The notes beneath the pieces are model-generated. The model had not been told where the DNA came from, did not search any database, and saw only the letters and a list, made by a program, of their open reading frames with translations. This document shows, one piece after another, positions 1,735-17,609 of a stretch of DNA of 17,609 nucleotides. The position numbers and the translations under genes are program-made. How positions within the stretch are numbered: the first letter of the stretch is position 1; every line of letters begins with the position of its first letter. This DNA is from a virus (taxonomy: Duplodnaviria > Heunggongvirae > Uroviricota > Caudoviricetes), in IMG/VR virus record IMGVR_UViG_2675903413_000002, positions 1 to 17,609 of that record; one strand, given 5' to 3'.

Positions 1735-1766
1735 AAATATTATACTCATCCTTCCTGAGGTAAGCT

Positions 1767-2114: not shown

Positions 2115-3131
2115 CTATCTTAAGTTGCATAAAGGGTTTTTAGTTACCGCATCTTCAAGGTGATCGGGCGAAAAGTGGGCGTAAATCATCGTCATTTTTA
2201 TATCGGCATGGCCCAGAATATCGCGCAGCACCAGTATGTTTCCGCCATTCATCATAAAATGGCTGGCGAATGTATGACGTAGCACGTGAGTGCATTGGCC
2301 CTCTGGCAGCTCGATGCCAGCTCGCTTTACTGCTCGTTCAAAGGCTTTTCTGCACGGGGTGAATAGCTTCCCTCTGTTCTTGGGGAGTTCGTCATACAGA
2401 TCTTGAGATATCGGCACGGTGCGGTTTTTCTTACCCTTCGTCTTGGTATAAGTGATGCGGTATTTAGATAACTGATGGCCCTGCAGGTTTTCAGCTTCAC
2501 TCCAGCGTGCGCCGGTGGCCAGGCATATTTTTGCAATCAAAAGCAGACTGGGGTTTTGAGAATCAGCGCAGGCATCTAGCAGACGTTTAATTTCTTCCGA
2601 GGTCAGGAACGCCAGTTCCCCCTCAGCGATTTTAAATGTTGGCAGCCCGGCGAGAGGATTTGGTGCTGACCAGTGGCCTAGTTTTTTCAATGTGCCGAAA
2701 ACCGATGATAGGTTACGTTGCTCAAGATTCACCGTGCGTGGTTTTACTGGCGACATTAGTGTGCCGTCTTCGTTACGAACGTCACCTTTTAACCGTGCTT
2801 CGCGGTATTTCGTAAAGTCACCGGCTGTCAGTTCTGAGGCGATGGGGTCGCCTAGACCATTACAGATAATTCTAAGTTTCGCCATGAGGCGCTTGGGGTC
2901 TGCGAGTGTCTGACCATACAGGGAATACCAAAGCTCAATTAATTCTGATAGGCGTCGCCGATCATCCTTTTCACCCAACCACGGTTTTTTATTCACTTCT
3001 TCCATTGTGAAGCTTTCAAAAGCAATGGCTTCGCCTTTCGTAGCAAATTGCTTACGCACGCGCTTACCATTGCGTCCATTGGGATAGCACTCACACAACC
3101 ATTTTCCGTTCGGCTGTTTTCTGATGGTCAT
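2115..3131 (-). CDS. int: Tyrosine recombinase, P2/186-family phage integrase
   Basis: 338-aa ORF; C-terminal catalytic motifs HVLRHTFAS (HxxR) and MTMIYAH (Tyr nucleophile); N-terminus MTIRKQPNGKWLCECYPNGRNGKR is typical of P2-family Int; lies immediately downstream of the repressor gene as in 186. Confidence 0.9.
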   Translation of the reverse strand: MTIRKQPNGKWLCECYPNGRNGKRVRKQFATKGEAIAFESFTMEEVNKKPWLGEKDDRRRLSELIELWYSLYGQTLADPKRLMAKLRIICNGLGDPIASELTAGDFTKYREARLKGDVRNEDGTLMSPVKPRTVNLEQRNLSSVFGTLKKLGHWSAPNPLAGLPTFKIAEGELAFLTSEEIKRLLDACADSQNPSLLLIAKICLATGARWSEAENLQGHQLSKYRITYTKTKGKKNRTVPISQDLYDELPKNRGKLFTPCRKAFERAVKRAGIELPEGQCTHVLRHTFASHFMMNGGNILVLRDILGHADIKMTMIYAHFSPDHLEDAVTKNPLCNLR

Positions 3132-3132
3132 A

Positions 3133-3765
3133 TCAAAGGCTCTTAATGATTTTCAGTGCGCGGCCTACTACCTCAATGTCATCTAGGCCACACTCAAACG
3201 ATGAATCATCCTGATGCACTACTAATTTGTTTCCCGGAAGTCGAGTCAATTTAACAATGCTTTTTATCCCGTCAATATCGACTAACCACATACCATTTAC
3301 TGGTGGTGTTTGGTTGCGATCTATTAAATAAGAATCACCAGAAGTAGTCACCAGCAGTAGGTTGCTTGAGTCTGAGGGGAGTATGCTGCTATCAATGATT
3401 GCTTTTCCAGCATCGACCAATAAACCACCGTTGAGAGTCGCCTTGTCAATTTCAGGAGATACTAGTTCAGAAAGAGGTACAACCTTGCTGGAGTTCACGG
3501 AATTGATATTTTTTTTAGGTTCAATGTTTGGACCTGGCTCCCCCTGTCCGGTGGTTAGCCACAGTAAAGAAACTCCTGTTTCCAAGGCGCACTGAATCAC
3601 CCACTCTGCAGGAAAACTATCTCTTAAGTATCTGTTTGCCATGGTACTTTTTGATGCGCCTAAGTGATCGCAAAGTTGCTGTCTGGACTTGAAATCATAG
3701 GCTGCCATTAGTCTATGGATAGCCTCTCTTCCCCCTGTATTCTCTCCAACCTTTACCTGTATCAT
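3133..3765 (-). CDS. cI: CI-like prophage repressor (helix-turn-helix N-terminal domain)
   Basis: 210-aa ORF directly upstream of int on the same strand (stop 3133, int start 3131); HTH-like segment (SKSTMANRYLR); AGGA ribosome-binding site 7 nt before the ATG; divergent from a rightward promoter with operator-like repeats. Confidence 0.7.
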   Translation of the reverse strand: MIQVKVGENTGGREAIHRLMAAYDFKSRQQLCDHLGASKSTMANRYLRDSFPAEWVIQCALETGVSLLWLTTGQGEPGPNIEPKKNINSVNSSKVVPLSELVSPEIDKATLNGGLLVDAGKAIIDSSILPSDSSNLLLVTTSGDSYLIDRNQTPPVNGMWLVDIDGIKSIVKLTRLPGNKLVVHQDDSSFECGLDDIEVVGRALKIIKSL

Positions 3766-3777
3766 TTTTTAATCCTG

Positions 3778-3806
3778 TTGACGTATCAAATATTGGATCG
3801 TAGTAT
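3778..3806 (+). promoter_or_regulatory. Candidate sigma70 early lytic promoter (pR-like): TTGACG - 17 bp - TAGTAT
   Basis: -35 TTGACG (3778-3783), 17-bp spacer, -10 TAGTAT (3801-3806); points toward the apl/cII operon starting at 3885; spacer overlaps an operator-like repeat. Confidence 0.45.
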
Positions 3807-3825
3807 CTCGATGTATCAAATATTG
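3783..3825. promoter_or_regulatory. Two 13-bp direct repeats GTATCAAATATTG (3783-3795 and 3813-3825), candidate repressor operators
   Basis: Exact 13-bp repeat with 30-bp (three helical turns) centre-to-centre spacing in the cI/apl divergent region; one copy lies in the promoter spacer, the other just downstream of the -10. Confidence 0.4.
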
Positions 3826-3884
3826 AATCAAGTAAAACGAGATAAAACGACGTAAACCAAACCTTAATCGGGAGATACTGCACT

Positions 3885-4127
3885 ATGAGCACTGATATTT
3901 CAATTCGTGTACCAAAAGAGATGGCTACGCCTGCAGAGTTCGCGGAATGGGAAGGTATCTCCCGCGGCTCTGTGTATCAAAAAATTCATCATGGTCAGCT
4001 TGCTAAATACATGGTCAAGAAAGAAAAAAACAAAGGCCGCGTAAGCCTGCGTTATTTAATGTACAAAACCGATCAGGTCCGTGAATCCCTCGGTCATTCC
4101 AACTTCCGCGTCATTGTTGGTAAGTAA
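3885..4127 (+). CDS. Small HTH DNA-binding protein, Apl/Cox-like excisionase-regulator candidate
   Basis: 80-aa ORF, first gene of the rightward operon opposite cI, at the position Apl holds in 186; GGGAG ribosome-binding site upstream; HTH-like segment ATPAEFAEWEGISRGSVYQKI. Confidence 0.5.
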   Translation: MSTDISIRVPKEMATPAEFAEWEGISRGSVYQKIHHGQLAKYMVKKEKNKGRVSLRYLMYKTDQVRESLGHSNFRVIVGK

Positions 4128-4159
4128 GTTCAATTATGAGAACTTTCTAAGGGGGTAGC

Positions 4160-4669
4160 ATGTTTGATTATAAGATTTCCAAACACCCGCATTTTGATGA
4201 AGCCTGTAGAGCTTTTGCACTTCGTCACAATATGGCGAAGCTGGCAGAACGTTCAGGAATGAATGTCCAGACTCTGCGAAACAAACTCAACCCAGATCAA
4301 CCGCATCAGCTCAATGCGCCAGATATCTGGCTACTTACCGATCTGACGGAAGATTCAACGCTGGTAGACGGTTTTCTGGCACAGATTCACTGCCTGCCAT
4401 GTGTACCGATTAATGAGGTGGCAAAAGAGAAACTGCCACATTACGTCATGAGTGCAACCGCAGAGATCGGGCGTGTTGCTGCAGGTGCGGTATCTGGCGA
4501 TGTAAAAACCAGTGCAGGTCGTCGTGATGCTATCAGCAGCATTAACTCTGTTACACGACTGATGGCGTTAGCTGCTGTTTCATTGCAGGCCCGTTTACAG
4601 GTTAATCCTGCGATGGCAAGTGCAGTTGATACTGTAACCGGCCTCGGTGCTTCATTCGGTTTGCTGTGA
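4160..4669 (+). CDS. cII: Phage CII-like regulatory protein (186 CII family)
   Basis: 169-aa ORF (same length as 186 CII as I recall it) at the apl-cII position; GGGGG ribosome-binding site; N-terminal HTH-like region. Confidence 0.65.
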   Translation: MFDYKISKHPHFDEACRAFALRHNMAKLAERSGMNVQTLRNKLNPDQPHQLNAPDIWLLTDLTEDSTLVDGFLAQIHCLPCVPINEVAKEKLPHYVMSATAEIGRVAAGAVSGDVKTSAGRRDAISSINSVTRLMALAAVSLQARLQVNPAMASAVDTVTGLGASFGLL

Positions 4670-4676
4670 GGTGCTT

Positions 4677-4877
4677 ATGCTGACGAAAGAACCATCATTT
4701 GCATCGCTGCTGGTAAAACAAAGTCCGGCAATGTACTACGGTCACGGCTGGATCATGGGTGAGGATGGTAAACGCTGGCATCCGTGCCGTTCACAAGATG
4801 AATTGCTGGCAGAACTATCTACGAAAAAACGGGGGAACAAATGGCTATTGAAGGCGCTGCGGCGACTGTTCCATTAA
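4677..4877 (+). CDS. Hypothetical small early-region protein
   Basis: ATG at 4677 preceded by GAGGTG; 66 codons; its 3' end overlaps the next ORF by 37 nt, so one of the two assignments may be wrong. Confidence 0.3.
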   Translation: MLTKEPSFASLLVKQSPAMYYGHGWIMGEDGKRWHPCRSQDELLAELSTKKRGNKWLLKALRRLFH

Positions 4878-5182
4878 GCCCCGGTGAACGCCTGAATGGA
4901 CTTAATCACATAGCGGAATTAAGGGCGAAAGTTTTTGGCCTGAATATTGAGTCAGAGCTTGAGCGGTTTATTAAAGATATGCGTGATCCACGGGATATCA
5001 ATAACGAACAAAATAAACGAGCACTGGCAGCCATATTCTTTATGGCAAAAATTCCGGCTGAACGTCATAGCATCAGCATCAATGAGCTGACCACTGACGA
5101 AAAGCGGGAGTTGATTAAAGCAATGAATCATTTTCGTGCAGTGGTGAGCTTATTTCCCAGACGGCTAACCATGCCGAATTAA
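4841..5182 (+). CDS. Hypothetical P2-like early-region protein
   Basis: 113-aa ORF with GGGGGAAC ribosome-binding site ending 3 nt before the ATG; position between cII and the DUF2732/TraR genes matches the small early ORFs of P2-like phages. Confidence 0.45.
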   Translation: MAIEGAAATVPLSPGERLNGLNHIAELRAKVFGLNIESELERFIKDMRDPRDINNEQNKRALAAIFFMAKIPAERHSISINELTTDEKRELIKAMNHFRAVVSLFPRRLTMPN

Positions 5183-5249
5183 CCAACTAATGAAATTAAT
5201 GGCGTAAACCCGCCGGGCATCCCTTTATCTAAATTCAGGAGAATTGATT

Positions 5250-5483
5250 ATGCGTAATATTGAAATCCTCACGACTAAAACCGGACCGGATGATGCAGGG
5301 CTTAATATTTTACTGACAGAGGCTCGTCTGGAAGAACGCCGGGCAAGGGCTGAAGCAATGGCAGCTCGCCTTGATAGCCTGGCGTGTCATATCTCATCCC
5401 GTCAGCTAAACCACGTGGAAGCGGCAGAACTGCTGCGTGTGACTGCTGAAGCAATCCAGAACGAAGCGCAGGAGATCCACTAA
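5250..5483 (+). CDS. DUF2732-like small protein typical of P2-like early regions
   Basis: ATG at 5250 with AGGAG ribosome-binding site (5237-5241); the ORF-track start at 5244 is TTG and is rejected; stop overlaps the next start (TAATG). Confidence 0.5.
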   Translation: MRNIEILTTKTGPDDAGLNILLTEARLEERRARAEAMAARLDSLACHISSRQLNHVEAAELLRVTAEAIQNEAQEIH

Positions 5484-5710
5484 TGGCTGATGCAATGGAT
5501 CTCGTACAGCAGCGCGTTGAAGAAGAACGCCAGCGCCATATCCGTGCTGCCCGTGCCAAAACACCGGGCGTGTCTCGCGTGCTTTGCATTGAGTGTGAAG
5601 CGCCAATTCCGCCAGCACGCCGCCGTGCCATTCCGGGTGTGCAGCTTTGCATTACCTGCCAGGAAATTGCAGAGCTGAAAGGCAAACATTACAACGGAGG
5701 TGCTGTATGA
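5483..5710 (+). CDS. TraR/DksA-family C4 zinc-finger protein
   Basis: 75-aa ORF with CIECEAP...CITCQE (CxxC-N17-CxxC); typical of the TraR-like ORF upstream of gene A in P2-like phages; overlaps the downstream gene as ATGA. Confidence 0.7.
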   Translation: MADAMDLVQQRVEEERQRHIRAARAKTPGVSRVLCIECEAPIPPARRRAIPGVQLCITCQEIAELKGKHYNGGAV

Positions 5711-6564
5711 GCACCATCCTGAAATGGGCGGGAAATAAAACCGCCATTATGTCCGAACTGAAAAAACACCTTCCTGCTGGCCCGCGACTGGTTGAACCTT
5801 TCGCGGGTTCCTGTGCTGTGATGATGGAGACGGATTACCCCAGCTATCTTGTTGCGGATATTAATCCTGATTTAATCAACCTCTATAAAAAGGTTGCTGC
5901 TGATTGTGAGGCATTTATATCTCGTGCCAGAGCTTTATTTGAGGAAGCAAACAGGGAGGTGGCTTATTACAACATAAGGCAGAAGTTTAATTACTCCACT
6001 GAAATTACTGATTTCATGAAAGCGGTATATTTTCTGTATCTCAATCGTCATGGTTACCGTGGGTTATGTCGCTATAACAAGAGCGGGTATTTCAACATTC
6101 CCTACGGTAATTATAAAAATCCGTATTTCCCTGAAAAAGAAATTCGCGCATTTGCAGAGAAAGCCCAGCGGGCAACGTTTATCTGCGCCAGCTTTGATGA
6201 AACGCTGGCGATGTTGAAGGCGGGGGATGTGGTGTATTGCGATCCGCCGTATGACGGCACGTTTTCCGGTTATCACACTGACGGCTTCACTGAAGATGAC
6301 CAGTATCACCTGGCATCCGTTCTTGAACATCGGTCATCAGAAGGACATCCGGTCATTGTTTCTAACAGTGACACATCCCTGATCCGTTCGCTGTATCGCA
6401 ATTTTACTCACCACTACATCAAGGCAAAACGCAGCATCGGCGTAGCAGCTGGTGAGAGTAAATCTGCAACAGAAATCATCGCTGTTTCTGGGGCGCGCTG
6501 CTGGGTGGGATTTGATCCTTCGCGTGGCGTGGATAGTTCTGCCGTGTACGGAGTGCGTGCATGA
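5707..6564 (+). CDS. dam: DNA N6-adenine methyltransferase (Dam/D12-class)
   Basis: 285-aa ORF from ATG 5707 (the ORF-track start at 5647 is an upstream in-frame extension); SAM-binding FAGSCAV motif and catalytic DPPY motif ([10 protein letters not shown], nt about 6229-6258); ribosome-binding site ACGGAGGTG; stop overlaps gene A start (ATGA). Confidence 0.85.
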
Positions 6565-8975
6565 GCCATGCTGATATGAACAACTGCAGCGGCTTTAACG
6601 AGGCCGCCGCAGCATTCTCATGGAACAGCCCGAAAAAGGCTATTAACCCTTATCTGGACCCGGCGGAAGTTGCGCCGGTTTCTGCGCTTTCAAACCTGAT
6701 CACTCTGTACGCTGCCGATAACGAGCAGGAACAACTGCGCCGTGAGGCACTGAGTGATCAGGTCTGGGAGCGTTATTTCTTTAATGAATCCCGTGATCCT
6801 GTCCAGCGCGAAATGGAGCAGGATAAGCTCATTAGCCGGGCAAAGCTGGCGCATGAGCAGCAGCGTTTTAATCCAGACATGGTCATTCTGGCGGACGTCA
6901 ACGCCCAGCCTTCCCATATCAGCAAGCCGCTGATGCAACGTATTGAATACTTCAGCAGCCTGGGCAGGCCAAAGGCTTATTCCCGCTATTTGCGTGAGAC
7001 GATTAAGCCATGTCTGGAACGACTGGAGCATGTACGCGAGAGTCAGCTATCCACTTCTTTTCGCTTTATGGCAAGCCATGAAGGGCTGGACGGCCTGCTG
7101 ATCCTGCCTGAAATGAGTCAGGATCAGGTGAAACGCCTGTCCACCCTTGTTGCTGCGCATATGAGCATGTGTCTTGATGCAGCTTGTGGCGATTTGTATG
7201 CCACCGATGACGTTAAGCCAGAAGAAATCCGCAAAACATGGGAAAAGGTGGCAGCGGAAACCCTGCGTCTGGATGTTATTCCGCCTGCGTTTGAGCAACT
7301 CCGTCGGAAAAGAAACCGCCGTAAACCCGTGCCCTATGAACTCATTCCGGGTTCGCTGGCGCGTATGTTGTGTGCCGACTGGTGGTATCGGAAATTATGG
7401 AAGATGCGTTGCGAATGGCGGGAAGAGCAGTTGCGTGCTGTCTGCCTGGTCAGCAAAAAAGCATCCCCCTATGTCAGCTATGAAGCCGTGATGCATAAAC
7501 GTGAGCAGCGCCGTAAGTCGCTGGAGTTTTTTCGTTCTCATGAACTGGTGAACGAAGACGGCGACACGCTGGATATGGAAGATGTGGTAAACGCCAGCAG
7601 CAGCAACCCTGCGCATCGCCGCAATGAGATGATGGCCTGTGTTAAAGGTCTGGAGCTTATCGCGGAAATGCGCGGTGACTGCGCCGTTTTCTACACCATC
7701 ACCTGTCCGTCACGTTTCCATTCCACGCTAAATAACGGCAGGCCCAACCCAACCTGGACAAATGCGACGGTAAGACAAAGCAGTGATTATCTGGTCGGCA
7801 TGTTTGCTGCATTTCGTAAGGCGATGCACAAAGCCGGATTGCGGTGGTATGGCGTGCGGGTGGCTGAGCCGCATCATGACGGTACAGTTCACTGGCACCT
7901 GTTGTGTTTTATGCGCAAAAAAGACCGCCGCGCCATCACTGCATTACTGCGTAAGTTTGCCATCCGTGAAGACCGCGAGGAGCTGGGCAATAACACAGGG
8001 CCGCGCTTTAAGTCTGAGTTGATTAACCCGCGCAAAGGAACGCCGACAAGCTACATCGCGAAATACATTAGTAAGAACATTGACGGGCGTGGTCTGGCTG
8101 GCGAGATCAGCAAGGAAACGGGTAAATCCCTGCGTGATAACGCTGAATACGTTAATGCCTGGGCGTCTCTGCATCGTGTTCAGCAATTCCGCTTCTTTGG
8201 CATTCCGGGGCGTCAGGCTTACCGTGAACTGCGATTGCTGGCTGGTCAGGCGGCAAGGCAACAGGGGGACAAAAAAGCAGGTGCGCCGGTACTGGATAAC
8301 CCGCGCCTTGATGCAATCCTGGCTGCTGCTGATGCTGGTTGTTTTGCCACCTACATCATGAAGCAGGGCGGCGTACTGGTTCCCCGCAAATATCACCTGA
8401 TCAGAACCGCTTATGAAATCAACGAAGAGCCGACCGCCTATGGCGATCACGGCATTCGTATTTATGGCATCTGGTCACCCATTGCAGAGGGCAAGATCTG
8501 CACTCATGCAGTGAAGTGGAAAATAGTTCGTAAGGCCGTTGACGTTCAGGAGGCGGCAGCCGACCAGGGCGCTTGCGCCCCTTGGACTCGTGGCAATAAC
8601 TGTCCCCTTGCTGAAAATTTGAACCAACAAGGGAAAGACAAATCAGCTGATGGGGACTCCAGAACGGATATTACCTGTATGAATGACAAGGAGTTGCACG
8701 ATTACCTGCACAGTATGAGCAAAAAAGAGCGCCGGGAACTGGCTGCAAGGTTACGCCAGGTGAAACCGAAACGGCGTAAAGACTACAAACAGCGAATTAC
8801 AGACCATCAGCGACTGCAGCTCGTGTATGAGCTGAAGTCCAGAGGATTTGATGGCAGCGAGAAAGAGGTCGATTTACTCCTTCGCGGAGGCAGTATTCCG
8901 TCAGGAGCAGGCCTGCGTATCTTCTATCGGAACCAGCGTTTGCAGGAAGATGATCAGTGGCGGAACCTGTATTAA
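6561..8975 (+). CDS. A: Replication initiation endonuclease, P2 gpA-like rolling-circle initiator
   Basis: 804-aa ORF; HUH-type motif VHWHLL and paired active-site tyrosines in SYIAKYISK (Tyr codons at 8052-8054 and 8064-8066); located after the TraR-like and dam genes as in P2-like phages. Confidence 0.9.
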
Positions 8976-9069
8976 TTACGCGGGTTAACAATTCGTGCTC
9001 TTAATAATACCAGGCATATCAGGCTGATGAACGTAAAAAAACGTTTTACATCAGTAAGATTATTATATA

Positions 9070-9085
9070 CTGTAAATATAAACAG
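9070..9085. promoter_or_regulatory. LexA (SOS) box CTGT-N8-ACAG
   Basis: TACTGTAAATATAAACAGTG (9068-9087) closely matches the LexA consensus TACTGTATATATATACAGTA; lies about 45 bp upstream of the small ORF/DinI-like pair and overlaps a TATACT -10-like hexamer. Confidence 0.6.
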
Positions 9086-9128
9086 TGATTATACATACAG
9101 TATTGCGTGTGGTGTCATAGGAGGAAAG

Positions 9129-9317
9129 ATGCAGGACTATTTTTTGGAGTCTTTGAAGCTCCAGCGCATTGATTTTTTTCTTAAGCTTGTAGCGGCTAGT
9201 GAGTGTAGTGATGAAGATAAGGGGCTGGCTCTGCAGTGGGTTTCTGAATTGACTGATGAACTCATGGCAAAAATCAGAACCCACGAATACAACCGCTCAA
9301 TGGATGTCATCAGCTGA
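9129..9317 (+). CDS. Small SOS-controlled protein, possible Tum-like antirepressor module
   Basis: 62-aa ORF from ATG 9129 with strong ribosome-binding site AGGAGGAAAG; the ORF-track start at 9027 is rejected; directly downstream of the LexA box and upstream of the DinI-like gene. Confidence 0.4.
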   Translation: MQDYFLESLKLQRIDFFLKLVAASECSDEDKGLALQWVSELTDELMAKIRTHEYNRSMDVIS

Positions 9318-9327
9318 GGTGACTTTT

Positions 9328-9561
9328 ATGCGCATTGAAATAATGATCGATAAAGAGCAGAAGATTAGCCAGTCTACCCTGGACGCCCTTGAATCCGAGC
9401 TTTACCGCAATCTGCGCTCCCTGTATCCCAAAACGGTAATTCGTATCCGCAAAGGTAGCTCTAACGGTGTGGAACTGACCGGACTGCAACAGGACGAAGA
9501 AAGAAAACAAGTGATGAAAATTATGCAGAAGGTGTGGGAAGACGACAGCTGGCTGCATTAA
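9328..9561 (+). CDS. DinI-family protein
   Basis: 77-aa ORF MRIEIMIDKEQ...VWEDDSWL, with the MRIE start and acidic WxxDxW-type C-terminus typical of DinI; ribosome-binding site GAGGTGA; ATG 9328 is in frame within ORF-track entry 9256..9561. Confidence 0.75.
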   Translation: MRIEIMIDKEQKISQSTLDALESELYRNLRSLYPKTVIRIRKGSSNGVELTGLQQDEERKQVMKIMQKVWEDDSWLH

Positions 9562-9696
9562 GAAACGTTGCTGGCGTCTGAACTTGCTTCTGGCGTCAGC
9601 AAGGTTGAACAACGAGCCCTTGCGAGGCGTTAGCTCTGTAGTGCATGTCTATGCCGCATGAGATCGCATGATCGTTTGAGGATCGTTTTTGCTAAG

Positions 9697-9722
9697 GCCC
9701 GCCAGAACTGGCGGGCTTTTGC
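9697..9722 (+). terminator. Rho-independent terminator
   Basis: GCCCGCC-agaactg-GCGGGC stem-loop followed by TTTTG; ends the LexA-controlled operon. Confidence 0.7.
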
Positions 9723-9765
9723 GTAGATCATGCAGGTGCATGAAAACCACTACATAAAGCGGGCA

Positions 9766-9784
9766 GGCGTGGCGGGGATACGAG
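9766..9784. other. cos-like sequence (candidate cohesive-end site)
   Basis: GGCGTGGCGGGGATACGAG: the first 13 nt match the 19-nt cohesive end of phage 186 as I recall it (GGCGTGGCGGGGAAAGCAT). From memory, not verified. Confidence 0.4.
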
Positions 9785-9811
9785 CGCGCGCTTAGCCATG
9801 AATCTGTGGAC

Positions 9812-9857
9812 TTGATGGTGAAGCTAAGGTAATTTGTATCAAAAAAAGCAGTACAAT
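9812..9857 (+). promoter_or_regulatory. Candidate promoter elements for the two-gene cassette
   Basis: TTGATG (9812-9817) with a weak TGTATC 17 bp downstream; alternatively a good -10 TACAAT at 9852-9857 with a poor -35. Neither is convincing alone. Confidence 0.2.
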
Positions 9858-9870
9858 AGGGATATATAGA

Positions 9871-10950
9871 GTGGCGTTATCAGATGCGTTAATTACAGTA
9901 AATCAAGCAGAACGGGGCGGTGAAAACGCGTTGAGAGGCTTTTCATATCAAGCCTCTTGGGGGATAAATTATTTACTTGAGAAACAAAAAGAAAAGGAGA
10001 AATATTTATTTCTATTTGAATATCATGACGATATTCTTGTATTGAATTCATCTGTTTCTCCGACTAGTGCTGAGTTTATCCAAGTTAAAACAAAAAAAGA
10101 TGGTAAATGGACACTCGCAGCAATAGTGAACGCAACAAAAGCTAAACCTAAATCATTTGTTGCAAAACTATATGACCATTTCTATCAATTCGTTGGTCAC
10201 GAAATTTATATGGTTCTGTTATCGAATGCTGGATTCGATTTCTTAAATGATAATAACGAAAAAGGTAGTGATCTTAATAATGAGCATAAGGAAATTATAA
10301 TTAGTAAGGTTCAAGAGCAGCTAAATACTAAAAAAGAAGTTCCTCTTGATAAAATAAAATTTAAAACATCTGATCTTAGTTTGTTAGATCCTAACTCACA
10401 TTTATACGGGAAAGTTGCAGTTTTTTTGAATTCTTACTTTGGGGATGATCATGGTATTAATTCAACAGCATTCACTAAATTATTAATCAATAAGTGTAAT
10501 GAGAAGGTTAGTGTTGCTTCTAGTGATATCAAAACTTTTGAAGATTTAGTACTAAAGAAAGGTATATCTTCAGAATTTGTAACTGATTTATTATCTGGAC
10601 TCATTGCAAGCATAAAAATAACGCCAAAATGGGAACAGGTTTGTATGTTGCTTGGTACTTTCTCAGATCCTTATGAGGGGATTAAATTACAATCAGTTTT
10701 TACACGCATATCAATAAAAGTGCTCAATGTCAATTCAATATACTATCTTTATTTTCTGGAATTTCAATCGGCTCTAAAGAGTATAGAGCATTATCGTGAG
10801 ATACCTGTTCGAGACCTCTTCTTTACACTCGAAAAAACAATTGCAGCGGGGGACGGGGATTTCTCTTTATTAAATCAAGAAGAGAAATTTATGATTGCTA
10901 TATATGCAATTATAAAGTTGACTTTTGAGGATGTTTCTTATGAAGAATAA
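9871..10950 (+). CDS. Putative defence effector: DUF4297/Cap4-like PD-(D/E)xK nuclease N-terminal domain with a C-terminal domain of unknown function (LmuA-like)
   Basis: 359-aa ORF with GTG start and TAGGGA Shine-Dalgarno-like sequence; N-terminal RGFSYQASWGINYLL motif followed by EYHDDILVL...EFIQVKTKK (Asp53/Asp54, Glu68, Gln71-x-Lys73) resembling a PD-(D/E)xK core; strongly AT-rich; sits between the cos-like site and the portal remnant. Confidence 0.65.
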   Translation: MALSDALITVNQAERGGENALRGFSYQASWGINYLLEKQKEKEKYLFLFEYHDDILVLNSSVSPTSAEFIQVKTKKDGKWTLAAIVNATKAKPKSFVAKLYDHFYQFVGHEIYMVLLSNAGFDFLNDNNEKGSDLNNEHKEIIISKVQEQLNTKKEVPLDKIKFKTSDLSLLDPNSHLYGKVAVFLNSYFGDDHGINSTAFTKLLINKCNEKVSVASSDIKTFEDLVLKKGISSEFVTDLLSGLIASIKITPKWEQVCMLLGTFSDPYEGIKLQSVFTRISIKVLNVNSIYYLYFLEFQSALKSIEHYREIPVRDLFFTLEKTIAAGDGDFSLLNQEEKFMIAIYAIIKLTFEDVSYEE

Positions 10951-12598
10951 CGTTAAATTTAAAAATATAAAAATACTCTCATTAAGAGACAGAAAAGCTT
11001 TTTCTTATGAGTTTTCAGAAGGGGTTAACTTCATATATGGTACAAATGATGTTGGTAAATCAAGCCTGATTAAAAGTCTTTATTACACATTAGGTGGAGA
11101 TTTAAGGCTTGATGATGCTTGGAAATCAGATGATATAGTTACACTGGTGGAAATTAATAACGGGGAAAGTGATTTTATTTTTTTGCGTTATAAAAAGATT
11201 ATTGGTGTCTTTGATTTGAAGAATGATGATCTAGTCGTGTATAACACGATTTCGTCATTAGCATCTCGTGTTTCAAATATATTTGGTTTTAAACTGGAAT
11301 TACATAATAAATATACGGGTGCTACGACTCAGGCAAACCCTGCTTGTTTGTTTGCCCCATTCTTTATTGATCAGGATGAAGGATGGAAAGCGGTGATAAA
11401 TTCTTTCGAAAACATGAGTATGTACTCAGAATGGCAAAAAAACATTCTTTACTATCACTCTGGAATTAAGCCAAAGGAATATTACACAGTTCAAGGGAAA
11501 ATCAAAGAAGTTAAAGTTAAAATTTCAGAGTTAGATGGTTTTGTTAAGGTTCTAAAAAGAAGCAAAAGTAAGATTGATGAATCTTTTGGTGTGGTTTTAT
11601 TTGATGTTGATTTGGATTTTTATAAATCAAAGTTAGAACGTATATTAAATGAATATTCTAATTTGAATTTAGTTCAGACAGAATATAGATTGAATCTTTT
11701 GAGGTTATATTCTAGGAAGAATTTCCTTGAGAGTGAACTCAAAGAGATAACTGCGATTATTGATAATGAATTTGAGATTTCGAATTTTCGAGATGATAAT
11801 GTTGCTTATTCAGTAAATGAATATAATTATATAAACCATAGAGATGAAATGCTCAAAAACATTGCTGTTCTTGCAGATGAGAAAAGCAAGATTGAGGAAA
11901 ATATTCCTAAATTGAATCAAAAGCTAGAAGAGTCAAGGGCTGCTTCAGAGGCGTTGCAGGCGCTGATTTTAGAAACTCAATCGGAAATAACGCTTCATGA
12001 TGTTATTAAATCTGCTGCATACCATGAAATTGAATCTACTTTTGTTTCACAGTTAGATGAGTTATTCGTTGAGATTGGTCGAAAAGAAGGCGAGTTGACA
12101 GAATTACAAGAAGAATTAGAAGTATACAATGATAAGAAAAGAACTGTTAAAATAAATGACTGTTTCAAAGAGTATTTCGCTAAAGCTCTTAAAGAGCTTG
12201 GTGTCGAAAATACAAAGGTAGGTGGCCTTAGTAGTTATAATAATATTACTAAGGGTAAGACTGGTAGTCGAGGTCCTCGAGGTATATTTGCATTTCACTA
12301 CGCGCTACTTAGTGTTATGAAAAGCAACTCTTCAGTTGAGAATATGCCTATAGTAATAGACTCTCCAAAGCAACAAGATTTGGATCCAGAGCATACGCAT
12401 AAGCTTATAAAACTATGCTTGGATGGGTTTTCCCTTACAAATCAGATTATTATTGGCACTGTTGGTTATGAGAGTTTCATGGATGGTTTTAATAGCATCA
12501 AACTTGAAAATAAATATCATCTTTTAAATGATGAACATTATGATAATGTTTATTCTCAATTAATGCCATTGTTTGAACGGGTGATACTTTCAAGATGA
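10940..12598 (+). CDS. SMC/Rad50-like coiled-coil ATPase (LmuB-like)
   Basis: About 552 aa from ATG 10940 (ribosome-binding site GAGGAT 7 nt upstream; overlaps the upstream stop by 11 nt). Walker A GTNDVGKSS (nt 11039-11065); long Glu/Lys/Leu-rich coiled-coil middle; C-terminal Walker B-like MPIVIDSPKQQD (nt about 12344-12379). Confidence 0.75.
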   Translation: MKNNVKFKNIKILSLRDRKAFSYEFSEGVNFIYGTNDVGKSSLIKSLYYTLGGDLRLDDAWKSDDIVTLVEINNGESDFIFLRYKKIIGVFDLKNDDLVVYNTISSLASRVSNIFGFKLELHNKYTGATTQANPACLFAPFFIDQDEGWKAVINSFENMSMYSEWQKNILYYHSGIKPKEYYTVQGKIKEVKVKISELDGFVKVLKRSKSKIDESFGVVLFDVDLDFYKSKLERILNEYSNLNLVQTEYRLNLLRLYSRKNFLESELKEITAIIDNEFEISNFRDDNVAYSVNEYNYINHRDEMLKNIAVLADEKSKIEENIPKLNQKLEESRAASEALQALILETQSEITLHDVIKSAAYHEIESTFVSQLDELFVEIGRKEGELTELQEELEVYNDKKRTVKINDCFKEYFAKALKELGVENTKVGGLSSYNNITKGKTGSRGPRGIFAFHYALLSVMKSNSSVENMPIVIDSPKQQDLDPEHTHKLIKLCLDGFSLTNQIIIGTVGYESFMDGFNSIKLENKYHLLNDEHYDNVYSQLMPLFERVILSR

Positions 12599-12604
12599 AA
12601 ATAT

Positions 12605-12622
12605 GGCCTCAGAAATGAGGCC
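12605..12622. terminator. Stem-loop GGCCTCA-gaaa-TGAGGCC between the convergent cassette and portal remnant
   Basis: Perfect 7-bp stem; on the minus strand it is followed by AUAUUUUC, so it could terminate the leftward portal transcript; it may also insulate the cassette 3' end. Confidence 0.5.
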
Positions 12623-12638
12623 GACTAAATTATCTTAA

Positions 12639-13148
12639 TTAAATTTTTAGTTCGTAGGTTGAAAAATTTATAATTCTATCGTTTAACCAATTATTTATTT
12701 CTAGAAACATTTTTTGTAGAGGCAGTAGCTCATTTCGTACAAATACTGTGCTTGCCTTTTCGATATCCCCAAACCCCCCGACATTATTAGGCATTATCCC
12801 CATCATTTGTGGCGGCACACGATGCGCCGCCATCATGTCGTCCCGGCTCACGTTCTTGATATTCAGGAACTCATCCTTCGCCGCCACTTCTGACAACGGG
12901 ATAATCTGAAGCCCGTCCTTTTTACCGTTAGGCGAGTACATAAACAGGTTACGGAAGTTACCAGGACCTTTGGCGCTTTTCATCGCATTGCGGAGGTTGT
13001 TCACATCCTCCTGGTTCTGCGCAGCATCGGTCATGTACATGATGAAGCCTGCATGACTGCCGTTAATGTAATACTTGCGGCGGAACAGCGTGGCGGACTC
13101 GTTGAGCAGAGCTGACGGAATGGCAGAAAGATAGGTGCTCTGCTCAGT
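12639..13148 (-). pseudogene. Q: Portal protein (gpQ-like) C-terminal fragment; 5' part of the gene deleted
   Basis: Only about the last 170 codons of the minus-strand ORF look portal-like (…HRVPPQMMGIMPNNVGGFGDIEKAS…). The ORF-track upstream extension to 13565 is the antisense strand of the tape-measure fragment and is rejected. Confidence 0.5.
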
Positions 13149-13160
13149 CCGATAGGTCTT

Positions 13161-14051
13161 GTGGTTACTGCACTGGCGGGCGTGGCGCTGGTTGTCTGGA
13201 AATACTGGCAACCCATCACCGCATTTCTCGCTGGTGTGGTGGAAGGATTCAAAGCGGCGGCAGGTCCCATCAGTGCAGCATTCGAACCACTTAAGCCTGT
13301 GTTTCAGTGGATTGGCGACAAAGTGCAGGCGTTGTGGGGCTGGTTTACTGATCTGCTGACGCCCGTTAAGTCGACCTCTGCCGAACTGCAGAGCGCAGCG
13401 GCAATGGGGCGACGATTCGGGGAGGCACTGGCGGAAGGGCTGAATATGGTCATGCATCCGCTGGACTCCCTGAAATCCAGCGTTTCCTGGTTGCTGGAAA
13501 AACTCGGCATTGTCAGTAAAGAGGCTGCAAAGGCGAAACTGCCGGAAAGAGTGACGCGTCAGCAACCTGCGACGGTGAATGCAGACGGTAAAGTGATGAT
13601 GCCATCGGGTGGTTTTCCGTCATGGGGATATGGCTTTGCGGGGATGTATGACAGCGGCGGCTATATCCCGCGCGGGCAGTTTGGCATCGTCGGTGAAAAC
13701 GGGCCGGAAATTGTTAACGGCCCGGCAAATGTGACCAGCCGGAGAAATACAGCTGCACTGGCTGCCGTTGTTGCCGGAATGATGGGCGTTGCTGCCGCGC
13801 CTGCAGAGCTTCCACCGTTGCATCCTTTGGCACTTCCCGCGAAAGGCGGCGAAGCGATGGTGAGTCGTGCAGCCACTGTGCCGCCCGTTCACCGGATTGA
13901 GGCACCGACGCAGATCATCATTCAGACGCAGCCAGGACAAAGTGCGCAGGATATTGCGCGGGAGGTGGCACGCCAGCTTGATGAACGTGAACGCAGGCTG
14001 AAGGCAAAAGCCAGGAGTAACTACAGCGATCAGGGGGGATACGACGCATGA
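13161..14051 (+). pseudogene. T: Tail tape-measure protein (gpT-like) C-terminal fragment
   Basis: 296-aa ORF rich in Ala/Gly with a …GIVGENGPEIVNGPANVT… segment typical of tape-measure C-termini; far shorter than the about 800 aa expected; directly followed by U and D as in P2; abuts the portal fragment with no intervening structural genes. Confidence 0.55.
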
Positions 14052-14533
14052 TGATGGTGCTGGGATTGTACGTGTTTATGCTGAGCACCGTTCCGTATCA
14101 GGAACTGCAGTATCAACGCAGCTGGCGACATGCGGCAAACAGCCGGGTAAACCGTCGTCCGTCCACGCAGTTTCTGGGACCGGACAACGACATGCTGACG
14201 CTTTCTGGTGTTCTTATGCCGGAGATAACGGGCGGCAGGCTGTCGTTGCTGGCTCTGGAGCAGATGGCAGAACAGGGAAAAGCATGGCCCCTGATTGAAG
14301 GCAGCGGCACGATTTACGGCATGTATGTGATTGAGGGACTGAATCAGACTAAAACGGAGTTTTTCCGCGATGGTATGCCGCGCCGGATTGAGTTTACCCT
14401 GTCGCTCAAACGTGTGGATGAATCCCTGTCCGATATGTTCGGTGATCTCAGTGCGCAGCTGAATAATTTGCAGGATACGGCAACGTCTGCCTTAAGCGAT
14501 ATCAGTAAAACGGTGGGAGGGCTGCTGTCGTGA
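14048..14533 (+). CDS. U: Tail protein gpU-like
   Basis: 161-aa ORF, start overlapping the T stop (ATGA); position and size match P2 gpU between T and D. Confidence 0.7.
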   Translation: MMMVLGLYVFMLSTVPYQELQYQRSWRHAANSRVNRRPSTQFLGPDNDMLTLSGVLMPEITGGRLSLLALEQMAEQGKAWPLIEGSGTIYGMYVIEGLNQTKTEFFRDGMPRRIEFTLSLKRVDESLSDMFGDLSAQLNNLQDTATSALSDISKTVGGLLS

Positions 14534-15630
14534 ATTTCAGCTCTGAACTGCTTAACAAAGGCAACAAAACTCCCGCATTCAGCATCAGTATTGAGGGGAA
14601 GGATATCACCACTGTGCTGGATAACCGCCTGATGAGTCTGACGTTGACGGACAATCGGGGCTTTGAAGCAGACCAGCTTGATCTGGAGCTGGACGACGCC
14701 GACGGAAAAATCGTGCTGCCGCGCCGTGGTGCGGTCATCACGCTGGCGCTGGGCTGGAAGGGGCAGCCGCTTTTCCCGAAAGGGGCATTCACGGTGGACG
14801 AGATTGAACACACTGGCGCACCGGATCGCCTGACTATCCGGGCGCGAAGTGCTGATTTTAGGGAAACGCTGAATACCCGCCGTGAAAAATCGTGGCACAA
14901 GACCACCGTCGGGGAAGTGGTGAAGGAAATAGCCGCGCGGCACAAGCTGAAGATGGCACTGGGTAAAGACCTGTCGGATAAGCCCGTGGAACATATAGAC
15001 CAGACCAATGAGAGTGACGGCAGTTTTCTGATGCGGCTGGCGCGCCAGTACGGTGCTATTGCGTCGGTGAAAAATGGCAATCTGTTATTCATCCGGCAGG
15101 GACAGGGCAAAAGCGCCAGCGGTAAACCTCTGCCGGTGATCACTATCACACGCAAGGACGGCGACAGTCACCGCTTTACCCTGGCAGATCGCGGAGCCTA
15201 TACGGGGGTAATTGCCAGTTGGTTGCATACCCGCGAACCCGTGAAGAAAGAAAGCACCACGGTGAAGCGTAAGCGCAGGACCGCAAAGCAGAAGAAAGAG
15301 CCGGAAGCGAAGCAGGGCGATTACCTGGTGGGTACGGATGAAAACGTGCTGGTACTTAATCGCACTTATGCCAACCGGAACAACGCTGAACGGGCAGCGA
15401 AAATGCAGTGGGAACGCCTGCAACGCGGCGTTGCGTCATTCTCGCTACAACTGGCGGAAGGTCGGGCAGATCTCTACACGGAAATGCCAGTGAAAGTCAG
15501 TGGCTTTAAACAGCCGATAGATGATGCGGAATGGACCATTACGACTCTGACACATACCGTCAGCCCGGATAACGGTTTTACAACCAGTATTGAACTCGAA
15601 GTGAAGATTGATGATCTTGAAATGGAATAA
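14530..15630 (+). CDS. D: Tail protein gpD-like
   Basis: 366-aa ORF with GTG start overlapping the U stop (GTGA); located immediately upstream of ogr as in P2. Confidence 0.7.
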   Translation: MNFSSELLNKGNKTPAFSISIEGKDITTVLDNRLMSLTLTDNRGFEADQLDLELDDADGKIVLPRRGAVITLALGWKGQPLFPKGAFTVDEIEHTGAPDRLTIRARSADFRETLNTRREKSWHKTTVGEVVKEIAARHKLKMALGKDLSDKPVEHIDQTNESDGSFLMRLARQYGAIASVKNGNLLFIRQGQGKSASGKPLPVITITRKDGDSHRFTLADRGAYTGVIASWLHTREPVKKESTTVKRKRRTAKQKKEPEAKQGDYLVGTDENVLVLNRTYANRNNAERAAKMQWERLQRGVASFSLQLAEGRADLYTEMPVKVSGFKQPIDDAEWTITTLTHTVSPDNGFTTSIELEVKIDDLEME

Positions 15631-15698
15631 TGTGTTCTCAATATTGATATTTTGTGTATCATTACAATGATTCTGATAGCAAAGGTAGGGATCTGGAT

Positions 15699-15917
15699 AT
15701 GATGAATTGTCCGAAGTGTGGTCATGCGGCGCACACAAGGAGCAGTTTTCAAGTAACAGAAAGCACCAAAGAGCGTTACTGCCAGTGCCAAAATATTAAC
15801 TGCGGGAGCACTTTTGTTACCCATGAAACAGTGGTCCGGTTTATTGTGACACCTGCATTGATTGCTACAGCCCCTCCACATCCATTGCCAGGTGGTCAGG
15901 GGCATATGAATTTTTGA
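15699..15917 (+). CDS. ogr: Ogr/Delta-family zinc-finger late-gene transcription activator
   Basis: 72-aa ORF MMNCPKCGHAAHTRSS...KERYCQCQNINCGSTF...PHPLPGGQ, matching the P2 Ogr zinc-finger pattern (CxxC...CxC...C) and length; ribosome-binding site GGTAGGG 8 nt upstream; the ORF-track start at 15654 is rejected. Confidence 0.85.
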   Translation: MMNCPKCGHAAHTRSSFQVTESTKERYCQCQNINCGSTFVTHETVVRFIVTPALIATAPPHPLPGGQGHMNF

Positions 15918-15923
15918 GAAAGA

Positions 15924-15943
15924 GAACCTGCTACGGCAGGTTT
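15924..15943. terminator. Hairpin AACCTGC-tacg-GCAGGTT followed by TTTTTATT (ogr terminator; overlaps candidate attR core)
   Basis: 7-bp stem with 4-nt loop and T-tract on the plus strand, 7 nt after the ogr stop; the stop of the convergent minus-strand gene (15944-15946) lies inside the T-tract. Confidence 0.55.
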
Positions 15944-16426
15944 TTATTCATCTGGGATCTCACCCGTTTCAAGAAAATGTATAAAGCCAGGCTCATCTAT
16001 GATGATTGTGCCTTTCATCCTGGCTGCCGATACTTTTGATGGGCCTGCATTGTAACCGCAACAGAGCATCTGAAGGCTTTGGGTTACAGAGGTTCTTACC
16101 GTTAATCCTTGTTCATTCGCCTTATCAACCAATCTTTCTTTATCTGCTTTCTTAAATCCGGTGAAGCACACATCGAATGTATTTTTTTTCGGACCAGACT
16201 GCTTAGTGAGATGTGAGTAGTTTTCGGGGAGGAATGACGCGCATTCCTGAATGGCTTGTTCTGGTGAATCGTACTGTTTAAGAATGCGGTCTTTTCGGAA
16301 GGTTTTTATTCGATCGGTGTTCTTACAAATGCCCTGTATATGATTTTCGCTATAACTGATGCTCTGTATTGAGTGAACACCGATACGACCATTTGCATTG
16401 ATGTAAACAAAGTGAAGTTCTTCCAT
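15944..16426 (-). CDS. WYL-like N-terminal domain / BRCT C-terminal domain protein
   Basis: 160-aa ORF with ribosome-binding site AAGAGG. C-terminal FDVCFTGFKKADKERLVDKANEQGLTV...NAGPSKVSAARMKGTIIIDEPGF resembles the BRCT domain of NAD-dependent DNA ligase; N-terminal …RIKTFRKDRIL… resembles the WYL motif. Confidence 0.6.
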   Translation of the reverse strand: MEELHFVYINANGRIGVHSIQSISYSENHIQGICKNTDRIKTFRKDRILKQYDSPEQAIQECASFLPENYSHLTKQSGPKKNTFDVCFTGFKKADKERLVDKANEQGLTVRTSVTQSLQMLCCGYNAGPSKVSAARMKGTIIIDEPGFIHFLETGEIPDE

Positions 16427-16510
16427 GTGAAACCTCTTTGCATGATTTCAAGATGGCGACAGGCAAGATGGACGCAAAAGTCTGTCGCCATTTTGCCGCC
16501 ACTACCAAAG

Positions 16511-16539
16511 AAAAAGGGGCTACGCTTTCACGTAACCCC
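16511..16539 (-). terminator. Rho-independent terminator of ssrA
   Basis: On the minus strand: GGGGUUACG-UGAAAG-CGUAGCCCC (9-bp stem with one G-U pair) followed by UUUUUC, just 3' of the tmRNA CCA end. Confidence 0.7.
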
Positions 16540-16549
16540 TTGATTTATT

Positions 16550-16912
16550 TGGTGGAGCTGGCGGGAGTTGAACCCGCGTCCGAAATTCCTACATCCTCGG
16601 TACTACATGCTTAGTCAGTCTTTACATTCGCTTGCCAGCTGCGGACGGACACGCCACTAACAAACTAGCCTGATTAAGTTTTAACGCTTCAACCCCAGGC
16701 AGGGCTTCCACGCGATCTCTTTTGGGTTTGACCTCTCTTGATCCCCGTCCTAAGAGCGGAGGCTAGGGAGAGAGGGCTCTAAGCAGGTTATTAAGCTGCT
16801 AAAGCGTAGTTTTCGTCGTTTGCGACTATTTTTTGCGGCTTTTTACGAGGCCAACCGCCCCTCGGCATGCACCTTGGGTTTCGCAAATCCCGTCGAATCC
16901 AGAATCAGCCCC
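16550..16912 (-). ncRNA. ssrA: tmRNA (transfer-messenger RNA, SsrA)
   Basis: Minus strand begins GGGGCTGATTCTGGATTCGACGGG and ends …GGTTCAACTCCCGCCAGCTCCACCA; contains the tag reading frame GCAAACGACGAAAACTACGCTTTAGCAGCTTAA (ANDENYALAA); 363 nt, enterobacterial-type. Confidence 0.95.
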
Positions 16913-16926
16913 AATGTGTAAAGGTA

Positions 16927-16932
16927 AGTATA
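16927..16932 (-). promoter_or_regulatory. ssrA promoter -10 hexamer (TATACT on minus strand)
   Basis: TATACT lies about 15 nt upstream of the mature tmRNA 5' end on the minus strand, consistent with a precursor processed by RNase P; the -35 was not confidently identified. Confidence 0.45.
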
Positions 16933-17126
16933 CCAGATTTATGAGCGCCATGACCAGCCTCAATGGCGTTATCGTTAAAGATTTAGCACCCATGTAGCCT
17001 GATTTTTATTCGATTAAGCAATGGGATGGCAACATTTGTGTCGGATGTGATAGCCAATAAGATGTTCATTCGCGCCGCCGGAGAGGGAGGCGCGGTGAGG
17101 AACTGGTCAATAATTGGAGTGCAGGT

Positions 17127-17609
17127 TTAACGGTGGGCGTTTTTCATGATACGTGCTTTATCCACCTGCCATTCGCGCTCTTTGATATCTGAACGTTTAT
17201 CGTGCTGTTTCTTACCTTTGGCGACGCCGATTTTCACTTTGCACCAGGCATTTTTCCAGTACAGGGAGAGCGCCACTACGGTATAGCCTTCTCGATTGAC
17301 GCGACCGTACAATGAGTCCAGTTCGCGCTGGTTGAGAAGTAACTTGCGGGTACGGGTAGGATCGCACACCACATGCGTGGAGGCCACGGCCATTGGCGTG
17401 ATGTTAGCGCCAAACAGAAATGCCTCTCCGTCACGCAGAAGGACGTAGCTGTCGCTGATATTGGCTTTTCCTGCGCGCAGGGATTTAACTTCCCAGCCTT
17501 GCAGGGCAAGTCCCGCTTCGAACTCTTCTTCGATAAAGTATTCGTGACGGGCGCGCTTGTTAAGCGCGATGGTCGCTGAACCAGGTTTATGTGCTTTTTT
17601 CTTCGTCAT
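17127..17609 (-). CDS. smpB: SsrA-binding protein SmpB
   Basis: 160-aa [31 protein letters not shown]… essentially identical to enterobacterial SmpB; directly upstream of ssrA on the same strand; start codon at the window edge. Confidence 0.95.

Follow-up and report, generated by a model that had tools for sequence, protein, structure and literature searches.

Positions 1 to 17,609 of the IMG/VR virus record IMGVR_UViG_2675903413_000002 (hereafter the window, meaning the whole 17,609-nucleotide stretch that was analysed) hold a P2-like (Peduoviridae, Elveevirus-like) prophage at the ssrA gene of Escherichia coli. The element carries intact genes for integration, repression and replication together with two predicted defence systems, and in its centre the C-terminal part of a portal gene abuts the C-terminal part of a tape-measure gene. 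Taken as a whole, this arrangement is likely to reflect a single recent illegitimate deletion of a P2-like ssrA prophage, in which 18,757 bp running from portal codon ~180 to tape-measure codon ~720 were lost and the ends were joined at a TA dinucleotide. We infer that the event originated in a specific break within the portal gene.

The deletion between the portal and tape-measure genes

Two relatives establish what the window contains and what it lacks. The best reference is the intact ssrA prophage of E. coli VG888-46E9 (NZ_CP128581; locus L004; hereafter VG888), which is 99.4-99.8% identical to the window and shares its attachment site, dCTP deaminase and Lamassu cargo. The second is Escherichia phage Cartapus (NC_070909, Peduoviridae, Elveevirus), to which window positions 1-16594 align in six collinear blocks of 82-97% identity, in the order integrase, CI, cox, CII, Dam, gpA, cos, portal gene, tape measure, U, D and ogr. 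The order int-CI-cox-...-gpA-cos-Q...T-U-D-ogr-att is collinear with classified members of the P2-like group, and Pfam matches to Phage_portal, Phage_P2_GpU, Phage_GPD, Phage_GPA, Phage_CI_repr and Ogr_Delta support the same assignment. The complete head, tail and lysis gene set of a viable phage is not present, as the segment between the truncated portal (Q') and tape-measure (T') genes is absent. The site of this loss is defined by three features:

12639-13133, minus strand: C-terminal fragment of the portal gene (gpQ), residues 180-343 (164 of 343 codons) plus the stop codon, with no mismatches to VG888
13132-13133: deletion junction, a TA common to both parental sequences (2-bp overlap), at the break site called P
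13134-14051, plus strand: C-terminal fragment of the tape-measure gene (gpT), codons 721-1025 of 1025 (305 codons, 30%), with one mismatch to VG888

The endpoints can be placed to the nucleotide. Window positions 1-13133 correspond to L004 3679-16811 (23 mismatches, no gaps, 99.83% identity), and positions 13132-17609 correspond to L004 35569-40046 (27 mismatches, no gaps, 99.40% identity), such that exactly 18,757 bp are missing relative to the intact VG888 prophage. The comparison with Cartapus gives the same picture: positions 12710-13133 align to the 3ˊ half of the portal gene (Cartapus 943-1366), and positions 13132-16594 align to Cartapus 20001-23463, which covers the tape measure from codon ~720 followed by U, D and ogr. 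Both flanks are collinear with the intact relative, there is one junction and there are no other lesions, as expected for a single deletion. No insertion sequence (IS), transposon end or repeat is found at the junction, where the portal gene reads straight into the tape-measure gene. The deletion did create a perfect 10-bp inverted repeat around the junction, TGAGCAGAGC (13105-13114) and GCTCTGCTCA (13138-13147) with a 23-nt spacer. This repeat is probably due to chance, because it is absent from the other junctions at P described below.

The portal fragment retains a Pfam Phage_portal match (E = 3e-10, profile positions 143-277 of 321). The tape-measure fragment has no Pfam match of its own and was identified by its 97-100% nucleotide identity to annotated full-length genes. 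Its earliest possible start is a GTG at 13161, which lacks an obvious ribosome binding site. An open reading frame (ORF) on the minus strand at 12639-13565 (308 aa) is a read-through chimera in which only the last 164 codons belong to the portal gene.

The functions removed are those of particle assembly and lysis. Lost head and packaging genes comprise the N-terminal half of the portal gene, both terminase subunits, scaffold, capsid and head completion; the lost lysis genes are those for holin, lysozyme and spanins. From the tail region, the genes for tail completion, baseplate, tail fibres, DNA invertase, sheath, tube and E/E', along with 70% of the tape measure, are gone. Only U, D and the tape-measure remnant are left of the tail genes, and no head or lysis gene survives whole. 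The element is therefore unable to build particles or to lyse the cell. By analogy with P2, the P-Q/O, V and F late promoters would have been lost with the deleted block, and T', U and D would consequently be without a late promoter and are probably silent. The deleted element measures 16.8 kb compared to 35.5 kb for the intact prophage (47%), and its excised circle would likewise be ~16.8 kb.

An initial annotation of the window had proposed that a portal C-terminal fragment adjoins a tape-measure C-terminal fragment through a simple deletion that left no IS or repeat remnant, and had recommended alignment to an intact P2-like genome. The alignments to Cartapus and VG888 confirm both points, with gapless flanks that share only the 2-bp TA and with endpoints mapped to L004 16811 and 35569. 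The junction had been placed at about 13141-13165, which is off by ~10-30 nt, as its true position lies further left at 13132-13133. What the annotation missed is that this simple deletion does not lie at an arbitrary position, for its left break is recurrent.

A recurrent left end in the portal gene

The nucleotide at L004 16811, the portal position P, serves as a common left end for five different deletions, with right ends spread over 7 kb. In L004 coordinates, these are as follows:

SRR27314520 (L018): P joined to 31319, right end in the sheath gene
ERR12864302 (L126): P joined to 35254, right end in the tape-measure gene, with another hotspot cassette (SIR2)
GCA_001269265.1 and two others (the window type): P joined to 35569, right end in the tape-measure gene
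IMG genome 2695420596 (L037): P joined to 37666, right end in D
SRR31141154 and two similar places (L020): P joined to 38255, right end in ogr

In all five of these P-type junctions the right parent has TA, with an overlap of 2-3 nt (TA or ATA), and TA accounts for 3.1% of dinucleotide positions in that region. The five deletions occur in at least three sequence backgrounds and with at least two different hotspot cassettes. Judged by single-nucleotide polymorphism (SNP) haplotypes of the cassette, the window type and the ogr type group with the intact VG888 phage (1-2 SNPs in 3.4 kb), and the sheath type falls in another cassette clade, which also holds intact phages. Because these types lie in separate clades together with intact phages, the series is not accounted for by one ancestral event. 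Among 14 distinct junctions, five fall on one nucleotide within ~110 visible nt, a clustering for which simulation gives p ~1.5e-5. Complete genomes point the same way: matches to a 160-bp interval centred on P were broken in 19 of 1,224 records, compared to 5 of 1,164 and 1 of 513 for two control portal intervals (Fisher p = 0.007 and 0.013).

Other truncations lie close by. Four are within ~13 nt of P, namely L122 at -8, L133 at about +9, L132 at +12 and L014 at +13, and more distant junctions are located at +25, +28, +74, +80 and +98. The L014 and L132 cases look like small secondary deletions across P-type junctions. The first of these (GCA_030003955.1) has a portal'-D' junction in a prophage located at ybjL rather than ssrA, and its Lamassu cassette is 99.3% identical to that of the window. 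Finding the same cassette at ybjL hints at mobility of the cassette and junction region among P2-like backbones. In addition, the phage record NC_049449.1 (Klebsiella phage ST437-OXA245phi4.2, 18,281 bp) has 95% identity to the portal region and about half the length of a P2-like genome, and may be another deletion derivative.

Several sequences that initially resembled such deletions were rejected. Two loci (L079 and L099) are chance 20-mer matches in unrelated bacteria, and L013 reflects a scaffold gap. In L021 (GCA_902847725.1), a 26-bp tandem duplication in the portal gene, ~60 nt from P, splits the gene into ORFs of 221 aa and 133 aa. The 133-aa portal ORFs of Shigella result from a nonsense mutation (CGCAAG to CGATAG) rather than from a deletion; this clonal portal pseudogene of S. 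flexneri, S. boydii and S. dysenteriae (L108-L119) places a 133-aa C-terminal ORF in more than 1,000 index blocks.

The inference of a specific break rests on the fact that four other deletions with different right ends have exactly the left end found in the window. Under this proposal, a break or nick would occur at a specific position, P, in the portal gene. The left, cos-proximal end would then be kept to the nucleotide, presumably through protection, or alternatively because the enzyme recognises the retained side and the site can be cut again. The right-hand DNA would be resected or otherwise lost, and the ends would be rejoined via TA or ATA microhomology of 2-3 nt. A one-ended break followed by microhomology-primed restart would produce the same pattern. 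A more general form of this idea can be advanced only tentatively, and we consider it doubtful as it stands: some agent might cut or nick the portal genes of E. coli P2-like phages site-specifically (portal-sense ...CCCGGTTA|TCTTTCTGCC...), with the morphogenesis side being eroded to the next usable TA. Candidate agents are a nuclease with affinity for the retained side, gpA or a recombinase of the phage itself acting aberrantly, and an RNA-guided or homing nuclease of a competing element. A literature search found no description of a portal deletion hotspot, and the recurrent, nucleotide-exact portal break appears to be unreported in the searchable literature.

A number of observations weigh against a specific break at P. 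The first concern sampling. The other P junctions were found by exact look-up of a portal-remnant ORF of 131-135 aa (133 aa) and by a scan for the 20-mer ending at the junction, and the sample is therefore biased toward the neighbourhood of P, having been gathered via the ORF that such breaks create. Moreover, none of ~12 morphogenesis deletions in complete genomes falls at P. In the comparison of portal intervals from complete genomes, partial BLAST coverage may partly reflect divergence rather than breakpoints.

The remaining objections concern mechanism, since none was found for a site-specific break at P. There is no IS end that would point to an IS- or transposon-adjacent deletion, and the inverted-repeat partner of the retained end reaches at best 17-18/24. 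A hairpin or cruciform at P is not indicated by folding (z = -0.3); the sheath partner site alone folds slightly better than its shuffles. The native invertase crossover sites read TTCTCCCAAACC-AA-CGTTTATGAAAA and TTCTCACATACC-TT-GGTTTGGGAGAA. A Gin/Cin-type serine invertase acting at quasi-sites was rejected because P lacks the TTCTCNCAAACC half-site and the native cores are AA/TT. By inspection, P and its five partner sites have only the TA core in common and agree with the half-site consensus at 6/12 positions at most. Pseudo-cos cleavage by terminase and a gpA pseudo-origin were likewise set aside, as P shows no resemblance to cos and gene A contains nothing P-like beyond a 7-mer. Protection of one end by Chi finds no support, given that Chi (GCTGGTGG) is absent from both strands of the 35.5-kb intact prophage (L004 3438-39031), with ~1.6 occurrences expected in the 42-kb locus searched. 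Searches for an element inserted at P were also negative: the pattern BTARCCGGGCAGGCCGTAGATCTCC gave 0 matches in IMG/VR, and no insertion was present in 60 sampled rows of 346 matching phage-collection records, all of them uninterrupted single-piece matches. Separately, a homing endonuclease was considered on account of a GIY-YIG gene near the decayed portal gene in L134, and was discarded because this gene has no homologue in the phage collection.

Retained phage genes and defence cargo

Outside the two fragments, the window holds the following features:

1-1734, plus strand: predicted anti-phage dCTP deaminase, 577 aa, in the att-int hotspot
2115-3131, minus strand: integrase, intact, 338 aa; protein identical to VG888, 82% nucleotide identity to the Cartapus integrase region
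3133-3765, minus strand: CI repressor, intact, 210 aa (Phage_CI_repr and Phage_CI_C)
3885-8975, plus strand: early operon with every gene intact (Cox-like, CII-like, Fil, DUF5347, DUF2732, TraR/DksA, Dam, gpA)
6561-8975, plus strand: replication endonuclease gpA
9070-9085, plus strand: perfect LexA box, CTGTAAATATAAACAG
9129-9317, plus strand: 62-aa gene downstream of the LexA box
9328-9561, plus strand: DinI-like gene
9734-9792, plus strand: cos site, kept, 98% identity to the 59-bp annotated Cartapus cos in an alignment that wraps across the ends of the Cartapus record
9871-10950, plus strand: LmuA, a Cap4 nuclease (PADLOC E = 4e-143; Pfam Cap4_nuclease)
10940-12598, plus strand: LmuB, an SMC-like ATPase (PADLOC E = 5.9e-253)
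14048-14533, plus strand: gpU, intact (Pfam Phage_P2_GpU)
14530-15630, plus strand: gpD, intact (Pfam Phage_GPD)
15699-15917, plus strand: ogr, intact
15944-16426, minus strand: 160-aa BRCT-domain protein between ogr and attR (weak Pfam BRCT match, E = 0.0011; weak PADLOC PDC-S48 match)
16549-16594: attR core, 46 bp, overlapping the 3ˊ end of ssrA
16550-16912, minus strand: ssrA (transfer-messenger RNA)
17127-17609, minus strand: smpB

Many E. coli chromosomes match the ssrA and smpB flank on the right of the window at 100% identity. At the left end, the window begins with the start codon of the cargo gene located just inside attL. The attL core itself, which lies at L004 3438-3483 in VG888-46E9, is expected ~240 bp further left.

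All 19 other retained phage genes are full length and carry 0-4 amino-acid changes relative to VG888. Over the 17.6-kb window there are 50 substitutions relative to this prophage, with 0 in the portal fragment and 1 in the tape-measure fragment, a divergence that is small for a test of purifying selection on the retained genes as opposed to the remnants. The deleted element has kept all the parts needed to repress, excise and replicate, and its intact ORFs suggest that these activities may persist. The LexA box, the 62-aa gene and the DinI-like gene fit a 186-type SOS-controlled module, which the deleted element has also kept. These findings agree with the initial annotation, according to which int, the repressor, the replication genes, the SOS module and the accessory cassette remain: int, CI, cox, gpA, cos, the LexA-box module and two cassettes are intact.

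The dCTP deaminase matches the PADLOC dCTPase model over residues 9-573 (E = 1.7e-145) and contains a Pfam dCMP_cyt_deam_1 domain at residues 353-525. Its VG888 counterpart at the same position differs by one amino acid and is named 'anti-phage dCTP deaminase' in RefSeq. By domain content and a near-full-length model match, this gene is classed as a dCTP deaminase defence gene. LmuA and LmuB are both full length, overlap by 11 nt and are identical in protein sequence to those of VG888, and on the same kind of evidence they are assigned as a two-gene Lamassu system in the cos-portal hotspot. For both systems, an anti-phage function is predicted from these matches. In P2-like phages, defence hotspots have been reported between gpA and the portal gene (Rousset et al. 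2022, PMC9122126) and between the integrase gene and att (PMC13586616). The window conforms to this arrangement, with Lamassu between cos and the portal gene and the dCTP deaminase between att and int, and shows nothing different.

Additional variation is evident at the edges of these cassettes. A comparison of 42 portal variants (loci L001-L137) reveals a C-terminal stretch of ~35 residues that is hypervariable from one lineage to the next, after ~95 residues that hardly vary. The C-terminal variation appears to follow the adjacent hotspot cassette, and identity to Cartapus ends at 12710, leaving window positions 12639-12709 outside the alignment. Because the hypervariable portal end varies with the cassette, there seems to be a cassette-swapping boundary inside the 3ˊ end of the portal gene. 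The 160-aa gene with the BRCT match could mark a third cargo position. Elsewhere, the slot between ogr and attR holds a reverse transcriptase (L003) or a 238-aa hypothetical protein (L006).

Age of the deletion, alternative explanations and known systems

Exact look-up of the 296-aa tape-measure remnant ORF recovered the same portal'-T' junction in three draft assemblies, which perhaps represent one clone. GCA_001269265.1 is 100% identical to the window over 14.4 kb and is presumably the assembly from which it comes, Logan SRR11308030 is also 100% identical, and GCA_903972235.1 has no mismatches and two gaps, such that the three carriers show little or no difference across 13.4 kb. In GCA_903972235.1 (L009 13400-20891), a P4-like satellite with alpha primase, AlpA, Delta and Psu follows in tandem after ~23 nt of att core, adjoining a helper-type prophage that has lost the ability to form capsids. 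The junction was found by BLAST in 0 of 5,426 complete E. coli genomes, and the exact 40-mer across it is absent from species-representative genomes and JGI metagenomes. The same Lamassu cassette stands beside an intact portal gene in nine complete genomes. Given that the junction is rare and the gene fragments are unmutated (0 and 1 substitutions), the deletion looks young and strain-limited rather than old and fixed.

The initial annotation had instead portrayed the element as a domesticated prophage, fixed long ago and kept for its cargo. In the sense reportedly adopted by Bobay and colleagues in 2014, domestication calls for evidence such as the same defective allele at the orthologous locus across diverged strains, and here the only carriers are near-identical drafts. 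According to this explanation, an old deletion would have been kept by selection because the host gains the dCTP deaminase, Lamassu and immunity without the risk of lysis. It is in keeping with the retention of repressor and integrase in the absence of lysis and particle genes, and with two intact cargo systems whose sequences match those of intact phages exactly or almost exactly. Comparable morphogenesis deletions that spare the hotspot cassette recur in many strains, and defective P2-like elements with near-identical defence genes have been called common (PMC13586616). However, the junction is missing from the complete, species-representative and metagenome collections, its sole carriers barely differ, and the element remains 99.4-99.8% identical to an intact prophage. 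When conservation across strains was checked, as had been recommended, only the three drafts emerged. Furthermore, remnants that should be useless (portal', T', U, D, ogr, gpA and cos) are as intact as the cargo, and a very young deletion without any selection would look alike. We therefore consider domestication improbable for this allele, and note that the data do not separate selection for cargo from too little time for further decay.

Related deleted alleles do spread or persist, as demonstrated by E. coli H2 (L003 14041-14864). This strain carries an independent portal'-T' deletion at the same site and with the same Lamassu cassette, but with a 9-bp overlap and a left end 98 nt from P, and this allele is present in at least seven assemblies (including L101 and five similar places). 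Loss of the morphogenesis block by independent deletion is common in general and is seen in PEC41, F1005, TUM12355, VE-V10-F, PE15 and others, with endpoints that all differ.

Somewhat less probable still is that the element acts as a helper-dependent 'mini-P2'. It has kept int, cox, gpA with its origin, ogr and cos, and a P2-like helper could in this case package, for example, a ~33.6-kb dimer and spread the cargo in the manner of a satellite. P4 multimers are known to fill P2-size heads. The cos site is 98% identical to an annotated P2-type cos, the genes for excision and replication are intact, and the element has just under half (47%) the length of the intact genome. Two further observations could be read as signs of movement: the deleted element has a different right flank in the second assembly, where it lies beside the P4-like satellite, and the near-P junction of L014 occurs at ybjL with the same Lamassu cassette. 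The different flank, however, is accounted for by the satellite having inserted in tandem at the shared att core, no evidence of transfer was found among three carriers that may be one clone, and helper-manipulating genes of the sid or psu type are not present.

The least credible alternative is an assembly artefact, in which late genes present in the source genome were collapsed or mis-joined: it has no direct support beyond the facts that some E. coli genomes have more than one P2-like prophage (up to eight matching places per genome) and that contigs break at such junctions, and it is very unlikely given the identical junction in two NCBI assemblies and one Logan assembly (data sets that may not be independent of one another), a 2-bp overlap too short for k-mer assemblers to bridge (precluding a de Bruijn mis-join) and analogous deletions in closed genomes.

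A single recent deletion thus remains the likely explanation. It is useful mainly as a precisely mapped case for which a near-identical intact parent is available. The recurrence of P would carry broader consequences. If P is repeatedly broken with the lytic side always being lost, then a specific molecular event may underlie the 'grounding' by which prophages become stable defence islands. The outcome would be a nested series of grounded, non-lytic prophages that retain their defence cargo, reached by a directed route from phage to defence island and not by random decay, which would be relevant to the fixation of defence cargo in bacterial chromosomes.

Among known elements, Cartapus and the VG888-46E9 prophage have the same gene order as the window but retain the 18,757 bp from mid-portal to mid-tape measure, including the virion and lysis functions. 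Nested deletions with one fixed end are known from IS-adjacent deletion, aberrant site-specific excision and repeated cutting by site-specific nucleases. The P-type series resembles those that are IS-adjacent, that arise by aberrant excision or that follow nuclease cutting (e.g. CRISPR self-targeting), in that one end is fixed, the other varies over 7 kb and the junctions share 2-3 nt of identity. It differs in that no IS, recombinase site, protospacer logic or nuclease has been identified at P. The deleted element also resembles P4-like satellites in being small and integrated, in lacking structural genes and in carrying int, replication genes, cos, an activator of the Ogr/Delta type and defence cargo. 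Unlike these satellites, which measure about 11 kb, it is derived from a helper phage by deletion, encodes gpA rather than alpha primase, and has no sid, psu or epsilon. Its identity as a P4-like satellite was rejected because its gene content comprises P2 early and late genes, and because a true P4-like element sits beside the deleted prophage in L009. In E. coli K-12, the P2 remnant consists of a D' fragment and ogrK. By itself, the deletion belongs to a described class, in which defective P2-like prophages carry defence cargo after ordinary prophage decay. Such prophages with intact defence genes have been documented previously (PMC13586616), and the right-end genes D and ogr often remain in them as they do in the window, whereas here one portal nucleotide recurs as a deletion end.

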